Shown here one piece after another: positions 22,422-34,939 of a stretch of 64,000 nucleotides of DNA; position 1 is the first letter of the stretch, and the number at the start of each line of letters is the position of its first letter. A model generated the notes under the pieces. It worked only from the letters and a program-made list of their open reading frames with translations. It was not told the origin of the DNA and did no database searches. A program made the position numbers and the translations under genes. This stretch comes from a virus (Duplodnaviria > Caudoviricetes): IMG/VR virus record IMGVR_UViG_2840526738_000004, positions 12,203-76,202 of that record. One strand, written 5' to 3'.

Positions 22422-22478
22422 CGTTATTCCTTTCCTTTACTATGCTCCTTTACTATGCTCCTTGTATCGTGAGCAGCA

Positions 22479-22507
22479 TTGACATAGTTTTTAGATATCT
22501 ATATACT
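22479..22507 (+). promoter_or_regulatory. sigmaA promoter of antisense-oriented small unit 1
   Basis: TTGACA-17 bp-TATACT. Confidence 0.85.
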
Positions 22508-22591
22508 TAAGTTAGCCTCGTTTCAAACTGTGATGGTAAAATTACCATGTTGAACACCGTTTCAATAGCAGTAATTATGAAAGGAGGCTAG

Positions 22592-22726
22592 ATGGCGAAT
22601 AAACCATCTAAAGAAGGCACTGGACTGGAAATCAGTTTTGGGAAATGGTTCTCTTTGTGCCTAAGTGAAGACACCATTGTCAAACTGATAGTCACTTTTT
22701 TAACAGCTTTTGGCTTGTTAAAATAA
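22592..22726 (+). CDS. 44-aa peptide with hydrophobic C-terminus; type I toxin candidate
   Basis: MANKPSKEGTGLEISFGKWFSLCLSEDTIVKLIVTFLTAFGLLK; SD GAAAGGAGG paired with the transcript 5' end. Confidence 0.65.
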   Translation: MANKPSKEGTGLEISFGKWFSLCLSEDTIVKLIVTFLTAFGLLK

Positions 22727-22809
22727 CAGTGCCTTTTCTTAAACTTTTATATATGATATACTTAATTTGTCCTTACCTTTCCGTTACTAAAGGAAGGAGG
22801 ATTGCTGAT

Positions 22810-22842
22810 ATGACAACACTAAATATCAGCTGGCGTGGATAA
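22810..22842 (+). CDS. 10-aa leader uORF (MTTLNISWRG)
   Basis: SD AGGAGG 9 nt upstream; its stop overlaps the GTG of the next ORF. Confidence 0.45.
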   Translation: MTTLNISWRG

Positions 22843-22936
22843 CCAAAGTACTTTAGAGTGTCTCCAAGCTTTAAAGGAGATACTTGAGATAAGCATTATG
22901 GCTTTAACGTTATATTACTTATCAAAAGGGAAATAG
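22835..22936 (+). CDS. 33-aa hydrophobic peptide; type I toxin candidate
   Basis: MDNQSTLECLQALKEILEISIMALTLYYLSKGK; the GTG start lies in a 13-bp long-range helix with the region at its stop codon. Confidence 0.55.
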   Translation: MDNQSTLECLQALKEILEISIMALTLYYLSKGK

Positions 22937-22972
22937 GTTATCCATGCCTTTTTCTATGTCAATACCACACAT

Positions 22973-23001
22973 GATACAAGGAACATCTTGTATCTTTTTT
23001 A
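22973..23001 (+). terminator. intrinsic terminator of the plus-strand small units
   Basis: GATACAAG-gaacat-CTTGTATC followed by T7. Confidence 0.85.
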
Positions 23002-23010
23002 TTTAGTTAT

Positions 23011-25824: not shown

Positions 25825-25917
25825 ACTATCATCCTCCTTTTCGTATCGTTTGAGGTGTTGGCAGATGTTTTACTGCCCCCGTTGACACCTCATGTAATCT
25901 ATGAATGGTTTTATTAA

Positions 25918-25948
25918 AGGGTGCCTTTTACAGCACCCTGTGTTTTTT
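25918..25948. terminator. bidirectional terminator-like hairpin
   Basis: AGGGTGC-N8-GCACCCT, with GTGTTTTTT on + and TTAAT on -. Confidence 0.6.
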
Positions 25949-26225
25949 ATTCTACAATGCGCCAGTCGGCATAATGCCCATTTGCGCCATAATCAATAGG
26001 ATTGTCATTTAGATCCAAACCTTCATTCGTGCCATACCAATTACGAACGTACAATTCTTGACCAGTTTGTGTATCAAAGATGACAATACTTTGTTCAGTA
26101 TAACATGCGTTCTTGTCTGCTAATTCCATTGCTTCCTCGATTGTGTCGGCATATAGATTACCAGTACCTGTTCTAAAATCTACCATATAGTTTTTCATAT
26201 TATTTACACCCTTTCCATTCTTCAA
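25947..26225 (-). CDS. hypothetical early protein (start probably MKNYM)
   Basis: Operonic ORF. Confidence 0.65.
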   Translation of the reverse strand: MKNGKGVNNMKNYMVDFRTGTGNLYADTIEEAMELADKNACYTEQSIVIFDTQTGQELYVRNWYGTNEGLDLNDNPIDYGANGHYADWRIVE

Positions 26226-26505
26226 ATGTAATTTCTGTAATACGTCCTATTCTCCTTGTTTTGTCAGTAAACTTAAGTGTTACATATTCCCTTAACTCTT
26301 TAATTGACATTTCAACCTCATCTTCGTCAAATGTAAAGTCAATATGTGCCCATTCTGGGAATAGTTGCTCTATACTTTCAATAGTTGCACGTTCGTCATA
26401 AAAGAAACATTTGTTCATTAATTCTTTTAAGATAAGTACATTTATCTTGTTACGTTCTTTGATAAATTCGTTCCACAACACGTCAATTCTGTTTAATTCA
26501 ATCAT
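26200..26505 (-). CDS. hypothetical early protein
   Basis: RBS GAGG. Confidence 0.65.
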   Translation of the reverse strand: MIELNRIDVLWNEFIKERNKINVLILKELMNKCFFYDERATIESIEQLFPEWAHIDFTFDEDEVEMSIKELREYVTLKFTDKTRRIGRITEITFEEWKGCK

Positions 26506-26550
26506 TGTCCATCCCTCAACTTTCTATACGTGCTCGACAAAATTTCAATA

Positions 26551-26847
26551 TCAGTTATAAAAATAAACTATATTGTTATCATTATCTGTGCCCTTTGTTG
26601 GTAGTACATAAATATCAAAGTCCAAAAAAGGTATAGTAAAATTTCGTTCGTTTGCTTTTTCCGTTGAGCATGAGAATACATAGTCATTAACGCAACAATT
26701 ATCCCAATGCAATTCACTTTTCTCAATAAACACTTCATTATCGCCTACAAAGTTCCTTATTTCTTCTTGTAATTGGTCTTCACTAAATCTTTTATATACT
26801 AATGATTCTAAAAACTGTTCAAAGTCAACTTCTGTAATATGTTTCAT
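26551..26847 (-). CDS. hypothetical early protein, apparently truncated by a +1 T frameshift
   Basis: Removing one T from the T5 run restores a frame ending in an ATGA overlap at 26502. Confidence 0.55.
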   Translation of the reverse strand: MKHITEVDFEQFLESLVYKRFSEDQLQEEIRNFVGDNEVFIEKSELHWDNCCVNDYVFSCSTEKANERNFTIPFLDFDIYVLPTKGTDNDNNIVYFYN

Positions 26848-26848
26848 T

Positions 26849-27373
26849 CTATTCTTCCTCGCTTTCTAATCTTCCAATCGTTCCCCATTCTTCACAAGTA
26901 TCCATAACATAACAGCCTTTTGTATAAAATCTATATATTATCTCTCTCATGCATTTGGGGTTATTTATAATCTCAAATTGATTGTTTACGTATACCTCAA
27001 ATTTATTTTGCGAATTATTACTAAGTATTAGTAACATACCGTCATCATAAATATACAGTTCTGCCAACCGAAACCAGCGCATAGAAGCTTCTACACCTCT
27101 ATCTAAAACTCTGTTTAATGTAGCAAGTTTTCTTTTATTGCCTTTGACCTGTTCTAGTATTCTTTGTGTGATTTTACGTGCTGTTCTATTGCTTGCCTTG
27201 GAATACGCACTAAGCATGTTGTTATAATCCTCGTACTCATCTTTATGTTTATTTTCTGATTTCATCATCTCAAATAAATGGTTCTCAGCTTTGACACTGT
27301 TTTTTAGAATTTCCAGTAATTTTACATTATCATCCATTTTGATTACCTCTTTTCTTGGCGTTATGCTAATCAA
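26849..27373 (-). CDS. hypothetical early protein (start probably MDDNVK)
   Basis: RBS AAGAGG before ATGGAT. Confidence 0.65.
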   Translation of the reverse strand: MISITPRKEVIKMDDNVKLLEILKNSVKAENHLFEMMKSENKHKDEYEDYNNMLSAYSKASNRTARKITQRILEQVKGNKRKLATLNRVLDRGVEASMRWFRLAELYIYDDGMLLILSNNSQNKFEVYVNNQFEIINNPKCMREIIYRFYTKGCYVMDTCEEWGTIGRLESEEE

Positions 27374-27396
27374 AAGGTACCCTACTAAGGTACCTT
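27374..27396 (-). terminator. terminator-like hairpin
   Basis: AAGGTACC-N7-GGTACCTT followed by TTG. Confidence 0.6.
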
Positions 27397-27397
27397 G

Positions 27398-27883
27398 TTA
27401 ACTAATTATTGCTTTTACATATACTATATCGTCTTTACAAGTTGCTTCCATGCATATAATGCGCCAAGCTAGTGTACCCGCTATGACATCCTTAATCTGT
27501 ATTGTATCGCCATGGACAAGTACATTACCTTGTGCATCCATTACAACTAAACGACCATATATCATGCAATCTAATAGATGATAAAGAGTAAGATGTTGAC
27601 GAAACATTTCACGATTTATGAAGTCAATAATGATATTGTTGACATAACAACACAATCCTTCTTCACTTTCACAATAATATACTTTTCCACCGTCAAAGTA
27701 ATCATGTGTTATAGCAAACATTGATAGATTGTTGTATTCCAAATAATCAATTAACATAAAAGGATCAGTTGTATTTATTAGCTCAACGCATTCTAAATTA
27801 CGTGTTACTGCCTCAATTTTGTGTACACCGTCTTTATAGTTGTATCGCACATCAACGTATTGCTCAAACTCTTGTTTTGTCAT
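27398..27883 (-). CDS. hypothetical early protein
   Basis: RBS GAGGG. Confidence 0.65.
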   Translation of the reverse strand: MTKQEFEQYVDVRYNYKDGVHKIEAVTRNLECVELINTTDPFMLIDYLEYNNLSMFAITHDYFDGGKVYYCESEEGLCCYVNNIIIDFINREMFRQHLTLYHLLDCMIYGRLVVMDAQGNVLVHGDTIQIKDVIAGTLAWRIICMEATCKDDIVYVKAIIS

Positions 27884-27884
27884 G

Positions 27885-28232
27885 TTAGTTGCCCTCGCTT
27901 TCTCTTAAATCATTGTATAATTGCAATAAAGCATTTTTACACCATTCCATATCTTCATATACGTCTTTCATATCATATGGTGCTCCATTTTTGCCATGCC
28001 CTGTATCGTCAAGCCATAAATAAGTTTCATAGCTTACATCCCAATCTTGATAAGTTATATAAATACTTTCAATGAAATCATCAATGTCATCAGTTTTACA
28101 TAATGTTATACTAAAATCTTGTCCTGCTGGACTAAATTGAGATAATAAATAATTTTCTCTTTCATCAGTAATTGTCCACCCTAATTCTTCGATTTTATCT
28201 AAAACTTCTTGTATTGTTTTCACATTCAACAC
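27885..28232 (-). CDS. conserved hypothetical early phage protein
   Basis: QFSPAGQDF...YETYLWLD..GHGKNGAPY.MKDVYEDME pattern. Confidence 0.7.
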   Translation of the reverse strand: MLNVKTIQEVLDKIEELGWTITDERENYLLSQFSPAGQDFSITLCKTDDIDDFIESIYITYQDWDVSYETYLWLDDTGHGKNGAPYDMKDVYEDMEWCKNALLQLYNDLRESEGN

Positions 28233-28250
28233 ATCCTTCTTTTTTTTATT

Positions 28251-28595
28251 TTAATTTTCTTCACTTTCTGTATATTCATTTTCGATGAAATTTAACGCTT
28301 GTTCCAGTGTTTCAAACCTTTGAAAATCGTCTACCGTTCTTATTTTCAATGTATTTTCATCAAAGTGCCTAACTGTATACTTTCTTTCCATGCTATCAAA
28401 GGTATCCTCACTAGTTACAAATAAGTTACCTTCCATTAATTCGGTTTCGATTTTTGTTCCCCAGTATTCCATAGTATCTTTATCAAAATAGTGCAATCCT
28501 TTTTCTTTGCACATTCTGATTACATCTTTCATTCTTAGCATGTTAATTATCCTCGCTTTCCTAAAAGTCTTCATAATATTCCACAAGCCAGTCAT
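28251..28595 (-). CDS. conserved hypothetical early protein (start probably MLRMK)
   Basis: G.HYFDKDTM.YWGTKI...FVTSE...RKYTVR pattern. Confidence 0.7.
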   Translation of the reverse strand: MTGLWNIMKTFRKARIINMLRMKDVIRMCKEKGLHYFDKDTMEYWGTKIETELMEGNLFVTSEDTFDSMERKYTVRHFDENTLKIRTVDDFQRFETLEQALNFIENEYTESEEN

Positions 28596-28941
28596 AGACC
28601 TGCTCAGAACCGCATAAAGCCATTAATTTGTTGTAATTTTCTTTGCATCCTACAAATGCTTTAAAACACTCAGATGCTTTTGTATAACCGAAAGCAGCTT
28701 GAAACTCATCAATATCATCATTACATTGTTCCCAAGCTACAGCATCACGTACTAAACAACCTAAACAATTATATAGTGTAGGTTTTAAAAAACCGGGATT
28801 ACATTGATATTCAAATGTGATACTTGTACCTGTATCAGCTCGTAAAATGTTCACAATGTAACGTTTGTGATATTGAGTAAATGTATTGCTTTGGTCTAAA
28901 CTTTCTTGGTATTTATATTCTAAAACATCTAAAAAACTCAT
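28561..28941 (-). CDS. conserved hypothetical early protein
   Basis: F.YQCN...PTLYNCL.CL..DA...F...FGY pattern. Confidence 0.7.
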   Translation of the reverse strand: MSFLDVLEYKYQESLDQSNTFTQYHKRYIVNILRADTGTSITFEYQCNPGFLKPTLYNCLGCLVRDAVAWEQCNDDIDEFQAAFGYTKASECFKAFVGCKENYNKLMALCGSEQVYDWLVEYYEDF

Positions 28942-28943
28942 AA

Positions 28944-29174
28944 TTACTTACCACCTTTCTCTATTAATTCCCTATGCTTTTCTAATCTATAAAGACCACA
29001 ACCATTTTCTCTATATTCTTTTAGTCTTTGCTTTGCTAGTTTAAGTGTGTATTCACTACATTCACATTCCCATTCGGTGCCATAGTTGCCCATGATATCC
29101 CAACGGTCAATAGTTTTTCTTTTATACATTTTATTTTCCTCTTTTCCCATAGTAAAGGGTGTACAATTTAGCAC
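28944..29174 (-). CDS. small conserved early protein (start probably MYKRKT)
   Basis: RKT.D.W.I.GNYG..WE...LKEYREN pattern; RBS GAGG. Confidence 0.7.
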   Translation of the reverse strand: MLNCTPFTMGKEENKMYKRKTIDRWDIMGNYGTEWECECSEYTLKLAKQRLKEYRENGCGLYRLEKHRELIEKGGK

Positions 29175-29179
29175 ACCCT
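29156..29179 (-). terminator. terminator-like hairpin
   Basis: AGGGTGT-N10-ACACCCT followed by TTA. Confidence 0.55.
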
Positions 29180-29186
29180 AATTTAG

Positions 29187-29396
29187 CTATTCTTCTACTT
29201 CTACTATTTCATCTTCTTCATCAATTACAACGGTAAAATCGCTTGGCGTAACATTTTCAACACCATTTTCATTATAATACTCAATCTTTCCCATGATGTT
29301 TTCTTGTGCAAATTCTAACGCTTCATTTCTTGTTTCATATCCTTCATCAAAGGCTACCATGTTACCGTCTAACCATATTTCATATTTATATGTCAT
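29187..29396 (-). CDS. small acidic early protein
   Basis: RBS GAGG. Confidence 0.65.
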   Translation of the reverse strand: MTYKYEIWLDGNMVAFDEGYETRNEALEFAQENIMGKIEYYNENGVENVTPSDFTVVIDEEDEIVEVEE

Positions 29397-29701
29397 AATG
29401 CATAACCTCTTATCTTACTTTCCACAATAACAGCCATTCTATCCACATATTGCCATAAATCATAACGTGTATCAAAATCAATTAATTCTAGTTCATGAGC
29501 AAATTCTATTATTCCTTTTGTTTTTTGAATTCTATCATACATAAACCCTAAATTGTTATAATTTTTATAAGCGTAAAATAAAATTTCCAATCTTTCAAGA
29601 AATTTAATAACTTGCTCATTTCTAGTGTCAACGTCTACTACAAGTACAGCTTCTTTAAATTGATATTTCATAATGCTTACCTCGACTTTCTTATAACTCA
29701 T
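29393..29701 (-). CDS. hypothetical early protein
   Basis: Operonic ORF. Confidence 0.6.
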   Translation of the reverse strand: MSYKKVEVSIMKYQFKEAVLVVDVDTRNEQVIKFLERLEILFYAYKNYNNLGFMYDRIQKTKGIIEFAHELELIDFDTRYDLWQYVDRMAVIVESKIRGYAL

Positions 29702-29963
29702 AATATCTTTCTTTATATGCCAGTAACTCGCTACAATAAAATCTACAATTTACATCTTCTGTTTCAAGTATTTCTCTTAATGATGACACTTCATCAGCAC
29801 CAACAGCATCTTGAATTGCCTTGAACATCTCACTCACAATGATACAACCATCAGTATCCAACTTCATTCCATATTCATTTGTTTGTCCACTGTATTCTGT
29901 ATCTGTTACGTCATATTCATTGATTAATTCATTGATTGTCTGTTCTACTTGTTCAAATGTCAT
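29691..29963 (-). CDS. acidic early protein, first gene of the early arm
   Basis: RBS GAGGA after the long leader. Confidence 0.65.
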   Translation of the reverse strand: MTFEQVEQTINELINEYDVTDTEYSGQTNEYGMKLDTDGCIIVSEMFKAIQDAVGADEVSSLREILETEDVNCRFYCSELLAYKERYYEL

Positions 29964-29974
29964 GTTCTTTTCCT

Positions 29975-30550
29975 CAACTTTCGTTGTAATTCAAAGGGCA
30001 GACCATTCAGCCTACCCTGTTAACCATTCATAATTTACATGAGATATCAACCTCACGCCCTAAAATTAGGGATTATATATTTCATATTGGCAACTTGTAC
30101 ATTGCCAATCAAAACATATTTTGATATAATGATGTCGTACAAAGTACAACACCAACTACACGTAACATCTATGATTACTTGTAAACTCAAGACTAGGTTT
30201 TCAATCCTAGCAGGCAGGTGCCTTATAGTTCAATGTCACATGATTCAATTTTCAAATATCTGTACATTACAGCTATTCTCACGCACTTGTACCGTTTCTC
30301 AACGTGACGTATGCATGTTTCACAACATTCACACGTGCCCTTTGAATGCTAGTCAATTGGAAATAAACCGTAAAACTTAATGGTTTAAAGCCTCAGTGAT
30401 TAATCTAGTTTTCTGTAGTTTATAGGTTTTTACAAGACCTAGTAACTTGTGTACTTTTTGTACAATTCAATTTTTGATTTTGTCATAACGGCTAGGGTTA
30501 CACAACTTAACTTTGTCAGGGTTTGTTTTGTGTTGCCCTTGTCATTTGAC
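29975..30550 (-). ncRNA. candidate long structured leader or ncRNA (~590 nt)
   Basis: Lies between a consensus promoter and the first ATG; at least 8 hairpins, GNRA loops (GUGA, GAGA), G-U pairs that work only on the minus strand, and a terminal terminator-like hairpin. Confidence 0.5.
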
Positions 30551-30556
30551 ACCTAT

Positions 30557-30630
30557 ATGATAATCGATAAATGATTACATGTCAACACTTTTTGAGAACT
30601 TTTTTTAAAATTTTTTTGCTAATTCTAAAA
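30557..30630 (-). promoter_or_regulatory. major early sigmaA promoter with A-tract UP element
   Basis: TTGACA (30585-30580)-17 bp-TATCAT (30562-30557); phased A5-A8 tracts upstream. Confidence 0.85.
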
Positions 30631-30681
30631 CTATTGATTTTTCTTTCTATATATACGACTAACAAAAAGGGTGTGAAATAT

Positions 30682-31056
30682 ATGAGCATTAAGGCAAAAA
30701 CAAAAGCTTTTATAGCTATGAAAAACATAAATCTTACCAAAATGGCGAACGAAAAAGGTATAGCAAAACAAAATTTGTCTAGGACTTATGGCAGAGATAC
30801 ACTCAAAATAAAAGAGTTGTTGGAATTATGTGCTATTGCTGATTGTAGACTGTCTATTGTTGATAATAGAACTAACCGTGAATTAATAAATTATAACAAG
30901 TATGATATAGCGGCAGAAATTATAATGGATATGATTAATGGCAATAACAATGATAGTTTTGTTGATATATATGATAGTTACAATAGCTATAATACAGCCG
31001 AGGAGCCAACACAAGAACAGCCCAAAATGAGGAAACCAATATCACGTAAAAAATAG
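30682..31056 (+). CDS. XRE/Cro-like HTH regulator divergent from the early promoter
   Basis: INLTKMANEKGIAKQNLSRTY...LKIKELLEL; RBS AAGGGTGTG before the ATG at 30682 (the ORF-track start is too far upstream). Confidence 0.75.
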   Translation: MSIKAKTKAFIAMKNINLTKMANEKGIAKQNLSRTYGRDTLKIKELLELCAIADCRLSIVDNRTNRELINYNKYDIAAEIIMDMINGNNNDSFVDIYDSYNSYNTAEEPTQEQPKMRKPISRKK

Positions 31057-31068
31057 CAACACTCATAT

Positions 31069-31112
31069 GTACCAGTTACCCGTCGGGATTACTCGCAACT
31101 GGTACTATTTTT
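31069..31112 (+). terminator. intrinsic terminator
   Basis: GTACCAGTT...AACTGGTAC followed by TATTTTT. Confidence 0.75.
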
Positions 31113-31140
31113 ATGGATCAGTCGACCTACTATATATGAT

Positions 31141-31960
31141 ATTATGTATGCTTATGATTATATAGGTTTATTTGTGTGATATTATGTGATTATATGATAG
31201 ATATAGATATAAGGCATGATATGACATAAGATATACTTATTAAGTATGATGAGTGAGAATGGGATGAAGTAACGTGGAATAGGTATATAGCATGAGATAC
31301 TAGATGATATAGAGTGTGATACTATATTATGAGATGTTCGATGTTAGGACTATATCTAATTAGTATGTTCGATGACAATCGAATGGACTTGGTTCCAATG
31401 TGAAGTAAACTTCACAACTATATATACGTGTAAGATATATATTACATGCATAGATAATTAACAAATAAACCATGAATAGCAGATAATCAACTGGTACGAT
31501 ACTACCATATAGATAATATTGATTATGTTCGCCGATTATATAGTTAGGTGGGGGTGGTTTACTATTCAAAGTTATGAAAAAGTCGTGAAAATCGCCCCAC
31601 CTAGTCAGCTCTAGCAATACACCAATATTCAAAATATGCCTATTTAATAGGCTTTTTTAATGCTCATTCAGATCCCTTGACACCCCTACCTTAATTTTCT
31701 TACACACCATTTCCATTACCCAAAAAAACTTTCTCAAAAATTTTCTGGGGGCTATTTTGCAAAGTGTAAAGTGGTTAAAATTGCCTATTTTTGACCTATT
31801 TTCGCCCTGTTTTTCTGCCCTATTTTTACACCATAAACATCCAGTTTTATATACCGAAAATCACATGTTTTACAGATGTTGTTTTTACATGTTTTTTACC
31901 GTTGTTACACCGTTGTTGTTTATGTAGTAAAATAGATGTTCCACATGTTCATTTACCTAT
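31141..31960. other. strand-asymmetric non-coding region; putative packaging or terminus site
   Basis: A C-poor, G-rich stretch switches to a G-poor, C-rich one across the inverted repeat TAGGTGGGG/CCCCACCTA; phased CCTATTTTT tracts follow. Confidence 0.45.
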
Positions 31961-32149
31961 TCAACGTTACTGAATAATATTCTGGTACCTTTTCACGCAT
32001 ATTGTTAGTCATGTCTAATATGTAAAGTGTACTTGTTAATTATATTTAGCTTCGCACAGTGAATATATTTACTGGTATGCTTCCCTCTTACCTCTCACAA
32101 TTACCTATCCATTTCCATTTGTACCATTCACACACTCGTAAAATCAATT

Positions 32150-32365
32150 CTAAGGCACCATACGTTCGTTCTGAGCAACTTTAGCATTTGAAACGAGTAT
32201 TAATTAGGGTAAACCTTAAAACTTCTTAAATCGAGCGTATTAGCCCTTTTACGGTATATCTATCTCTTCCGAGGTATACAATATCCCTTTTAAGGTATCA
32301 TACGAGCTGTCTGAGAGGTTTTACAGGTTAACATGAGTATCAATTAGGGTATACCCCTTAAAACG
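32150..32365. repeat. two block-conserved repeats, 140-bp period
   Basis: TAAGGyAyCATACG-N5-TCTGAG-N19-GAGTATyAATTAGGGTAwACC..TTAAAAC at 32151 and 32291. Confidence 0.8.
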
Positions 32366-32531
32366 CCTAGAATGACCTCTAAAGAGCTTATACGGGTATT
32401 GGCACGAATATCAAGACACGACATGGAACCTTTTGGGTTAGGTTTAGGGTTAACAGGTATGGTTTACAGGTATTACATTTAACATTAACCATTTATAGGA
32501 TTATATAATCAATCATTGTTAACCCAACATA

Positions 32532-33035
32532 TGTTGGATGAGTGAAACGAATACAACAAATGTCATGAATGAGTGAAACGAATGAATGTCATTACAAACC
32601 CCATTTGCTCTATTGGTTTATGTGCTAGATCTTGTGATTAGGAATACAATAGCAGGATTGAACGTTAGCCATCAGGGAGAACCTTATTGCGTTTCGACAT
32701 CAATGTCAAGCCACAGGTCAATGTGTTGTAGCATTCAATAGCGAATATTATTATTCGTCATGAATGTCGATTAATATTTGCCTATCAGACATTCATAATC
32801 ACATAGGTTAACAGGTTCATATTCTTGTGTTATAGGGTTCATTTACCTGACTTGACTGATAATTTAGTATGAATGAAATAGTATTTATGAATGTAATGAA
32901 TAAATACTATGTAATGAATACTAAATACTAACTTCTAATTAACTCCTAAAAGAGAAAGAAAATATATATACTACGTATATATACAAAAGAAAGATGAAAA
33001 GGGTTCTAATAAGGTTTCTTATGTACGTACATATA
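32532..33035. other. putative replication origin region (hairpins with GARTGWAAYGA loops, AT-rich palindromes)
   Basis: Loop motif at 32540, 32571 and 32889 inside inverted repeats; palindromes TATATATAC-tac-GTATATATA and TATGTACGTACATA. Confidence 0.4.
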
Positions 33036-33085
33036 TGACTGTTTAGATACAAAAAAAGATGCCCATTTCTGGACACCTAATCCTG

Positions 33086-33396: not shown

Positions 33397-34371
33397 TTAC
33401 TTTACAAACATATTATACATAATTTTGTCCATATTACATTTTGCTATTTTTGAAGCATGGACATATCTCATTGTTGTAGATCTATTGGCATGCCCCATCA
33501 ACTTTTGCAATGTATCTTCATCAGTACCATTCTCAATCATTGCTGTAGCAAAAGTGTGTCGCAATGTGTGAGGATGAATCGTTTCATAATCAAGTCCAGC
33601 TTTGATTGCAGCATTCTTGACGATTGTATTGATTGTACCCACAGATATTTTTTTACCCTTACTGTCTGGTTGTGTCGTGTGCGATACAAACATATACTCG
33701 TTTTTATCTTTCCACGTTAGATTTCTTTTTTCAAGATATTCTGTAAGTTGTACGTACAAGTCTTTATGGATTATTTCAATACGAACCTTGTCTCCTTTTC
33801 CCTTTGGTTGGATTACATATGACTCATCACTCTTGAAAATATCCCCAACTTTTAAATCTGTTATCTCAGCACGTCGCATTCCTGTAGTTAGCATTAGAGT
33901 GACAATGATTGTGTTACGGAAACCAGCGATACCTTTTGACATTCCAGCACCTAGTATCAGCCTTCTGCCTTCTTCGATGGATAATGCCCTATCCTGACTA
34001 AATTCTGAGATTGCGTTCTTGTATCTGTAACATCCTTCGTCTGTTGATATTGGATTATAGTTCATGACACCAACTGATTTACGTGACAAGAACTTGTAAA
34101 AACTGTTTAGGGCAGCAAGCTTTGCATTTACTGTAGCACGCTTCATTCCCTTTTTAATTTGTTCTGAACTCCAATCGTTGACAATTTCAGGTGTTACGCT
34201 TCTGATATCTTCCAGTGTAATGTCTTTACTGCTTTTCTTGTTGAAGAACTGCAAGATTGACCGTGCATAACTATCTTTGGTTTTATCTGAAAGATTGTTT
34301 GTGTACATGTCTGCATAATTAATTTCGTTAGCTTTCCCTACTTGTGTATCGTTTAACATTATCTGTTCCAT
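33397..34371 (-). CDS. XerC/D-like tyrosine recombinase/integrase, catalytically intact
   Basis: TTGMRRAEI (R), KGKGDK (K), HTLRH, LMGH, TTMRY (Y). Confidence 0.93.
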   Translation of the reverse strand: MEQIMLNDTQVGKANEINYADMYTNNLSDKTKDSYARSILQFFNKKSSKDITLEDIRSVTPEIVNDWSSEQIKKGMKRATVNAKLAALNSFYKFLSRKSVGVMNYNPISTDEGCYRYKNAISEFSQDRALSIEEGRRLILGAGMSKGIAGFRNTIIVTLMLTTGMRRAEITDLKVGDIFKSDESYVIQPKGKGDKVRIEIIHKDLYVQLTEYLEKRNLTWKDKNEYMFVSHTTQPDSKGKKISVGTINTIVKNAAIKAGLDYETIHPHTLRHTFATAMIENGTDEDTLQKLMGHANRSTTMRYVHASKIAKCNMDKIMYNMFVK

Positions 34372-34549: not shown

Positions 34550-34939
34550 ATGGTAGAAAAAGTTATTTTTACAACAGCACAGTCTTACAACAATAGCCCT
34601 TTAGACGAACTGTTAGCAAACACACCAATCGAAAAGATTGATCTAGCGAAAATGAAATTATTTTTAAATTTATACACAACAAAGGTAAAAACGGACAGGA
34701 GATTTATGTATTCCCTTGAAGCTGATCTGATTGATTATGTTACTGTAGCCCTCAGTAATGTCGAAATCACATCACGTGATAGAGAGATTTTAGATTTTTA
34801 TTTGTGCGGATATACCGAGAAAGAGATTAGCAGAATTTTAAAAGTTAGTATAAACACAGTGAACAAACACCTTAAATCAAGTATAAGAAAAATTATCGAG
34901 CAATTGTACAGTGAAGTAGGCGTAGAGGTCAAACATTGA
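34550..34939 (+). CDS. sigma-70 region-4/LuxR-type HTH protein; candidate late-transcription activator
   Basis: ITSRDREILDFYLCGYTEKEISRILKVSINTVNKHL; RBS AAAGGAGG. Confidence 0.8.
   Translation: MVEKVIFTTAQSYNNSPLDELLANTPIEKIDLAKMKLFLNLYTTKVKTDRRFMYSLEADLIDYVTVALSNVEITSRDREILDFYLCGYTEKEISRILKVSINTVNKHLKSSIRKIIEQLYSEVGVEVKH

Follow-up and report, generated by a model that had tools for sequence, protein, structure and literature searches.

The window (the whole stretch of DNA analysed, 64 kb) makes up most of a 76-kb IMG/VR virus record. Every gene to the left of position 29963 is carried by the minus strand, the structural genes are carried by the plus strand from about 34550, and the main early promoter, the repressor gene and the integrase gene lie between them (Table 1). 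The closest named relative is Clostridium phage Amboise, whose portal is 61% identical and which has the same divergent layout of repressor and early arm; the repressor is 55% identical over 76 aa to that of Amboise (WAK79341), and the promoter block is kept in Amboise and in the Amboise-like records L010 and L027. Amboise resides as an inducible prophage in the cultured OMM12 strain [Clostridium] innocuum I46 (PMC10197239). Its early arm occupies one strand over about 42 kb, up to the genome end, and on this ground the stretch 29964-30550 of the window was taken as the leader of a very long early operon. The phage is a relative of Amboise, probably a temperate Amboise-like siphophage of [Clostridium] innocuum-type hosts. 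A lookup with the integrase added about ten contigs of the same phage clade, some of them with a leader of the window type.

The first genes of the early arm form a cassette enclosed by a long-range pair of complementary arms, referred to here as a bracket. The gene content of the cassette varies by lineage, and the enclosed genes are unrelated between clades. By analogy, the cassette probably holds host-takeover or anti-defence genes, since an AcrIC5-like gene is present in the same arm of a relative: this early-arm gene (L066, 13172-13354) has a precomputed Pfam match to the anti-CRISPR AcrIC5 and fits anti-defence early cassettes.

Other elements were observed around the control region. In Amboise (L003 4487-4711 and 4739-5000), the repressor is separated from the leader by a second small HTH gene (WAK79342) that is weakly paralogous to it, the early promoter block is present in two tandem copies, and the two phanotate ORFs WAK79343 and WAK79344 of the leader look spurious. 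In the window, about 2 kb devoid of credible ORFs (31057-33085) extend from the repressor to the gene of a small membrane protein adjoining the integrase. They contain short direct repeats (32535-32552 and 32566-32583) along with an inverted repeat (32862-32888 and 32900-32926) and a motif of ~25 nt repeated near 32195 and 32336. Amboise, G001 and L061 have an ORF-free stretch of this kind in the corresponding position; attP, an origin or another RNA could reside in it. The first gene of the structural arm (34550-34939), whose homologues in sister contigs match GerE / sigma-70 region 4, is a candidate late-gene activator.

Table 1. Position of the features of the early region (window numbering)
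Feature	Position	Strand	Remarks
Tyrosine integrase	33397-34371		between early and structural arms
Cro/CI-type HTH repressor gene, 124 aa	30682-31056	+	Pfam HTH_26
Main early promoter, TTGACA-17-TATCAT	30557-30585	-	11/12 matches; divergent from repressor gene
Untranslated early-operon leader, about 587 nt	29964-30550	-	mosaic: kept 5' piece, swappable middle, kept 3' module
5'-terminal long hairpin	30482-30550	-	begins at about +1 of the transcript; in MFE and centroid structures
12-nt perfect complement of hairpin e 3' strand and U-tract (29989-30000)	30336-30347	-	E about 0.04-0.07
Hairpin with GUGA loop	30336-30307	-	read from sequence
Hairpin with GAGA loop	30304-30293	-	read from sequence
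Hairpin	30210-30193	-	read from sequence
Hairpin	30109-30086	-	read from sequence
3' module, about 115 nt	29964-30078	-	CCCUAA hairpin, hairpin d, IR-L, hairpin e, RBS; 98% in L050-type leaders
Hairpin CCCUAA/UUAGGG	in 3' module	-	read from sequence
Hairpin d, 8 bp	30038-30057	-	-10.7 kcal/mol
IR-L, 5' arm of the putative long-range helix, 30 nt	30022-30051	-	spans the 3' strand of hairpin d plus the linker before hairpin e
Hairpin e, 10 bp	29995-30018	-	-15.2 kcal/mol; followed by UUUGAAUU; 3 nt past IR-L
First early gene start	29963	-	
First early-gene cassette, 12 small genes	25947-29963	-	enclosed by the bracket; function unassigned except one DUF7447
Hairpin T, terminator-like, 8 bp	25918-25939	-	-14.1 kcal/mol; short U-tract in the early sense, A-tract before
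IR-R, 3' arm of the putative long-range helix	25881-25910	-	7 nt past hairpin T; 57 nt before next start codon
Local hairpin hiding the 3' end of IR-R	25851-25892	-	-17.7 kcal/mol; mirrors hairpin d

All the hairpins named in the initial annotation were found on the minus strand at the positions it gave, and its statements that the leader follows the main early promoter and contains no credible ORF were borne out; this promoter is strong and close to consensus. The only minus-strand frames of the leader are a 37-aa frame starting with GTG and a 45-aa frame starting with TTG. A decayed or hidden gene was considered and dropped, as no family was matched and the frame is not conserved (the 113-aa frame of the plus strand is lost in sister contigs). 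The 5'-terminal hairpin is retained in the leaders of L005 and of the L050 type, and its first ~20 nt are common to the start of the Amboise P1 transcript; it may serve as a 5' stabiliser.

The initial annotation had described some 590 nt dense in hairpins and had proposed selection on the minus-strand RNA. Taken as a whole, the 587-nt leader does fold unusually well (MFE -160.2 kcal/mol, z -6.45, 0 of 100 shuffles as good; z -5.33 for the plus strand). However, the excess is confined to the last 186 nt: z is only -1.63 for the 5' 201 nt and -1.00 for the middle 200 nt, close to chance, so that the mid-leader hairpins of the initial annotation are individually no better than expected by chance. 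For the 3' 186 nt, z is -4.96 in the transcript sense versus -2.44 in the antisense (-54.9 versus -33.9 kcal/mol), a gap that results from G-U pairs, and structure favoured in the sense of the transcript is thus found at least in this third of the leader. In a scan of the 64-kb window by GC-regressed MFE of 200-nt pieces, 30001-30200 was the most structured piece of the minus strand. The second most structured region of the window is a gap of ~590 nt inside the minus-strand early arm (22422-23010). This gap carries a strong promoter (22479-22507) and a terminator (22973-22994), both on the plus strand, together with a 33-nt inverted repeat (22455-22487 with 22954-22986), and is likely a small unit of opposite strand.

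The leader was compared with known families and with sequence collections. The cmscan against Rfam that the initial annotation had proposed returned no leader match, either with Rfam 15 at E<=1 (positions 28000-33000 and the Amboise locus) or at the gathering score over the whole window, where the models included EAR/epsC, ROOL, GOLLD, HEARO, OLE and raiA among the rest. By blastn against the phage collection, the window leader gave no match and the Amboise leader matched Amboise alone, and IMG/VR searches for the locus with single proteins (first gene, repressor, cassette gene) gave no match. A degenerate 21-base pattern of the 3' module retrieved only Amboise-like records from IMG/VR and the JGI metagenomes; the 21 matches of a looser 16-base pattern were all in unrelated coding sequence. 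A portal profile run over 401 genomes of the order of a distant MAG's host recovered that MAG alone, and among the relatives found through the integrase, contigs L060, L063 and L067 stop before the leader.

Sister phages provided a finer view of the leader. The metagenome contigs L004 and L005 are 96-99.8% identical to the window, and divergence from L005 amounts to 12% in the repressor, 8% in the promoter, 5% in the 5' leader, 0.5% in the 3' leader and 0% in the genes. Such a smooth gradient indicates a recombination junction rather than constraint. Ten of 12 differences fall in unpaired positions, but they lie along this recombination gradient, and variation among these near-identical contigs is too small for covariation. 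Over 29600-30905, identity to L005 is 100% in the first early genes and slides to 88% in the repressor. The C-terminus of the repressor is swapped (98 aa versus 124 aa, with a third variant of 87 aa), and the immunity region is a recombination hot spot in this phage clade.

The leaders of L050, L052, L053 and L056 (L050 type) resemble that of the window at their ends only, over the initial ~147 nt (84%) and the final 129 nt (98%; window 30078-29950). Their middle is a different sequence of ~430 nt, distantly related to the middle of the Amboise leader, and it folds well (z -7.2). The Amboise and window leaders can be aligned only over their last ~170 nt (local score 52.5 versus 28.2 +/- 3.7 for shuffles). 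The exchange of the middle, together with an alignable 3' end, points to the 3' module as the selected unit. The initial annotation had suggested a large ncRNA as one possibility; in its fullest form this would be an RNA of the ROOL or GOLLD kind, functional over the whole ~590 nt. The high overall z-score and several GNRA loops speak for it, but sister phages have swapped the middle 400 nt, folding of the 5' and middle thirds is at chance level and Rfam gives no match; the mosaic largely refutes this idea, which we regard as very improbable. From sequence comparison, one conserved, ornate RNA of ~590 nt is thus not supported, and the mosaic and fold results correct an attractive idea.

Within the 3' module, hairpin d is retained in Amboise with one change on both sides of the stem and one on a single side. 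As its 3' strand is the start of IR-L, hairpin d competes with the predicted long-range helix. Hairpin e looks like a weak terminator or a pause site. RNAalifold retains its stem in the clades of the window and of Amboise, where two pairs have changed on both sides, and it contains a conserved U-G wobble that would be an A-C mismatch on the opposite strand; in L066, another hairpin takes its place. The 12-nt complement of its 3' strand is found only in leaders of the window type and could be an anti-terminator partner or a chance match. An attenuator was envisaged, in which hairpin e would be a regulated terminator with 30347-30336 as its anti-terminator and many transcripts would end as a leader RNA of ~560 nt; as a variant, this RNA might act in trans on IR-R. 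A hairpin of -15.2 kcal/mol followed by a U-rich tract 3 nt past IR-L resembles the seed-plus-terminator organisation of small RNAs, and the 12-nt complement is perfect and lies 336 nt upstream. However, with E about 0.05 this 12-mer is no better than chance, and neither the L050-type leaders nor that of Amboise contain it; the U-tract is short, no terminator was called there by the scan tool, and L066 has no hairpin e. We consider an attenuator improbable.

The most distinctive feature of the 3' module lies in its relation to a remote site. IR-L and IR-R, 4.1 kb apart, can pair at 29 of 30 positions (26 Watson-Crick pairs, 3 G-U pairs and 1 A-A mismatch) with a predicted duplex energy of -41.2 kcal/mol, and a self-comparison of the genome identified them as the sole significant long-range inverted repeat of the 31-kb early arm. 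Arm pairs were sought by BLAST-type self-comparison, RNAduplex with long partners being swamped by spurious looped duplexes in Amboise. Hairpin T, which precedes IR-R, closes the first cassette; its U-tract is weak in the window, and the homologous position is occupied by a canonical terminator in Amboise and L066. Two other functions of the arms were tried and rejected: a promoter inside them, for want of a usable -10 element, and nut-like sites, because the two copies are complementary in RNA, not identical.

The same arrangement was found in other lineages. In Amboise, a 31-nt arm is present 48-78 nt before the first gene, at the homologous position of the leader, and its partner lies 1.5 kb downstream, starting 11 nt past a canonical terminator. 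The arm pair is 2.2 kb apart in the Amboise-like records L010 and L027, again with the upstream arm at the homologous position of the leader and the downstream arm past a terminator. In a third lineage, L066 (a Logan contig with a leader ~75-78% identical to that of Amboise), the arms of 31 nt pair at 29 of 31 positions over 2.5 kb, and the distal one is placed right past a terminator. The window, Amboise and L066 thus all have a downstream arm that starts 7-11 nt past the terminator stem. In all three, a helix of at least about 20 bp can form on the operon strand around a unit contained in one transcript, with 29/30, 28/30 and 27/30 pairs and -39 to -43.5 kcal/mol. More distant relatives of the same layout (G001/L023, L061 and L062) have no arm pair, and their leaders are short or different. 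In the G001 provirus (L023 850-1140), the leader is ~880 nt long. It includes a 38-aa ORF preceded by a good RBS, its promoter motif is duplicated, and it is devoid of a long-range arm pair.

The sequence of the arms has diverged between lineages while their pairing is retained. The arms of the window are identical to those of Amboise and L066 at only 15-19 of 30 positions, and the Amboise and L066 arms have 25 of 30 positions in common. Arms from the same lineage pair at 27-29 of 30 positions versus 20-21 of 30 when the arms of the window are crossed with partners from Amboise or L066. Indexed from the shared core, 12 of the 30 helix positions are altered on both sides across lineages with retention of pairing, a covariation that rests on three lineages, two of which (Amboise and L066) are related. 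One mismatch near the centre of the helix is kept in every lineage; in variants of the window clade, it shifts from A-A to A-C and nothing else changes. The arms are unchanged in sister phages bearing the three repressor variants, and the orientation of the cassette is identical in about ten independent assemblies.

Amboise-type phages have a second, smaller bracket immediately behind the first. In Amboise, the hairpin and linker just past the downstream arm can pair with a site right after the next gene (~27 bp, -36.3 kcal/mol). L066 keeps both arms of this second bracket with only ~150 nt and no gene between them, and in L065 a homologous arm is present at the end of the leader with its partner after two small genes. 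Four positions of the second bracket are altered on both sides among Amboise, L066 and L065. Each arm, in the first bracket as in the second, has its outer end folded into a local hairpin, with energies of -10.7 and -17.7 kcal/mol in the window. These observations bear on the possibility that the leader is a spacer with no function, debris of recombination at a mosaic junction whose arms would be left over from an inverted duplication. The divergence gradient relative to L005 is indeed the signature of a recombination junction. Old duplicates, however, decay independently, yet three lineages with different arms keep 27-29 of 30 pairs, and the design is repeated in the second bracket; a functionless spacer is, in our opinion, even a little less probable than an attenuator.

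The covariation would look the same whether an RNA helix was under selection or the two copies of a DNA inverted repeat evolved in concert, and by itself it does not discriminate between them. Several observations nevertheless favour the RNA, and we put it at about two in three that the helix acts at the RNA rather than at the DNA level. Firstly, the arms sit on the transcribed strand of one operon, one of them always adjoining a terminator and the other a 5'-UTR hairpin. Secondly, local structure around the arms is far stronger in the sense of the transcript, and the non-canonical positions are mostly G-U in that sense: roughly 12 G-U versus 4-5 A-C events were counted, a modest excess in which some events are shared by descent. 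Thirdly, the cassette neither contains nor adjoins a recombinase gene, dyad symmetry is absent from the arms and the assemblies are all colinear.

At the DNA level, the arms could be the crossover sites of an invertible cassette, or paired protein sites that loop or insulate the first cassette. Inverted repeats of 26-34 bp that enclose 1-4 kb are typical of invertible segments in phages, as in the Gin, Cin and Hin systems. A recombinase or regulator that diverged together with its sites would also give covariation of the two copies, and several tyrosine recombinases are encoded elsewhere in these phages. However, Pfam and PHROGs searches with the cassette genes and their neighbours revealed no recombinase gene inside or adjoining the bracket: the matches within the cassette were DUF7447, phrog_4273 and phrog_4655 (unknown function), an AntA-like protein is encoded ~3.5 kb downstream of IR-R, and the nearest integrase gene lies on the far side of the repressor at a distance of 3.3 kb. 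The window, L005, L050-L056, Amboise, L010, L027 and L066 are colinear in one orientation, although assemblies constitute weak evidence on this point. Only 6 of 15 mirrored positions within an arm are symmetrical (counted by eye), mismatches are scattered and mainly G-U in the transcript sense, the position of the arms follows RNA features on both sides, and the arms remain constant despite the three repressor variants. We regard inverted repeats acting as DNA as unlikely.

Combined, these data are consistent with an RNA helix of kilobase range that would be completed only upon read-through of the terminator and would direct the processing or the stability of the message, a reading that we hold to be about as probable as all others together. 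The initial annotation had linked the leader to the series of terminators downstream; what stands of this link is the covarying 30-nt complementarity to the site just past the first terminator-like hairpin. In the proposed mechanism, IR-L would be partly locked in hairpin d within the 3' module. Transcripts stopped at the terminator would end in its hairpin and would have no IR-R, and in read-through transcripts a 30-bp RNA helix would close around the cassette of 1.5-4.1 kb. This helix would be a natural substrate for the double-strand-specific RNase III, which might cut the leader and cassette out of the polycistronic RNA; alternatively, the helix might shield their ends. Excision or end shielding would confer different stabilities on immediate-early and later messages. 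In Firmicutes, a perfect helix of such length is an RNase III substrate, the enzyme cutting the stalks of rRNA and also, according to a passage of the same source, the early RNA of phage SP82 (PMC4838370). We infer the transcription start, the read-through of hairpin T and any cleavage from the sequence.

As IR-R lies past the terminator, its pairing cannot stop hairpin T from forming, and the putative helix is thus not a usual antiterminator. A processive RNA antiterminator of the put or EAR type, proposed in the initial annotation, is another matter: the 3' hairpins would modify the polymerase so that it passes hairpin T and later terminators, and in one variant the downstream arm might strip the RNA off the polymerase. 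A very long operon on one strand with a single strong promoter and terminator-like hairpins inside would suit such an element, as would a conserved module of several hairpins in the leader. However, no Rfam family was matched at E<=1, hairpin e is not conserved in L066, and relatives with equally long arms have no such leader. Moreover, the most conserved feature is a single-stranded complementarity past the terminator, which an antiterminator does not need. We find this explanation doubtful, slightly more so than that of DNA repeats.

The kilobase-range helix may be one instance of a wider organisation. It is possible, at somewhat less than an even chance, that Amboise-like phages split their giant early transcript into cassettes by means of kilobase-range brackets serving as split sites for a double-strand-specific RNase, each with its distal arm just past a terminator, helix formation upon read-through leading to excision, shut-off or stabilisation of the immediate-early cassette. 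If true, this partition would amount to long-range retroregulation of multiple cassettes, which is not described for phage mRNAs, and a covarying 30-bp helix linked to a terminator around an early cassette, if real, would be a new way to time or process the early program of a phage. To our knowledge, regulatory intramolecular RNA helices of kilobase range are well documented in bacteria essentially for rRNA precursors only, and the messenger cases are few and short-range.

A close parallel is provided by the processing stalks of the 16S and 23S rRNAs of B. subtilis, targets of RNase III and Mini-III, in which the flanks of a 1.5-3 kb unit pair into a long helix as proposed here (PMC4838370). 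Each consecutive unit of an rRNA operon has its own stalk, like the first and second brackets of Amboise-type phages. Unlike the rRNA stalks, the brackets would enclose protein-coding early cassettes, the helix is AU-rich with a conserved central mismatch, and cleavage is only proposed. In the retroregulation of λ int by sib, an RNase III-sensitive duplex is completed only in RNA that reads through the terminator. Similarly, the distal arm described here is placed right past the U-tract of the terminator in three lineages and would be made only on read-through. Whereas sib is a local hairpin extending the terminator stem, the partner is here 1.5-4 kb upstream in the 5' leader, and either decay or stabilisation could follow. 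In S. aureus, pairing of the icaR mRNA's 5' UTR with its 3' UTR controls the access of a ribonuclease. In B. subtilis, a 14-bp pairing of the 5' and 3' UTRs of hbs modulates cleavage by RNase Y (PMC5737220). As in these messages, a structured 5' UTR would pair with a 3' region of the same message; the hbs and icaR mRNAs are however monocistronic and below 1 kb, with helices of 14 bp or similarly short, unlike the 27-31 bp around multigene cassettes with a 3' arm past a terminator seen here.

Phage precedents exist for the individual elements. The early polycistronic RNA of T7 is cut by RNase III into discrete units at double-stranded sites between genes. RNase III processing of early RNA is also described for the Bacillus phage SP82 in works cited by PMC4838370 (its refs 19 and 20). 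Unlike the T7 and SP82 sites, which are local hairpins, the site would here have one half at either end of a cassette. HK022 put, composed of two stems, and the Bacillus EAR element (epsC) are processive antiterminator RNAs that act in cis on RNA polymerase. They have in common with the present locus a structured cis RNA that forms part of the leader, and a long operon in which terminators occur; in contrast to them, the leader does not match the EAR model, and its defining feature is a complementarity of intermolecular type rather than a fold that binds polymerase. Finally, the P4 CI RNA and the c4 RNA of P1 and P7 are short processed immunity RNAs that act near the promoter on termination or translation. 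As in those phages, where such segments influence expression downstream, parts of the leader are complementary to other sites of the same transcription unit; the present phage, however, encodes a protein repressor, and the target is kilobases further downstream, past a terminator.
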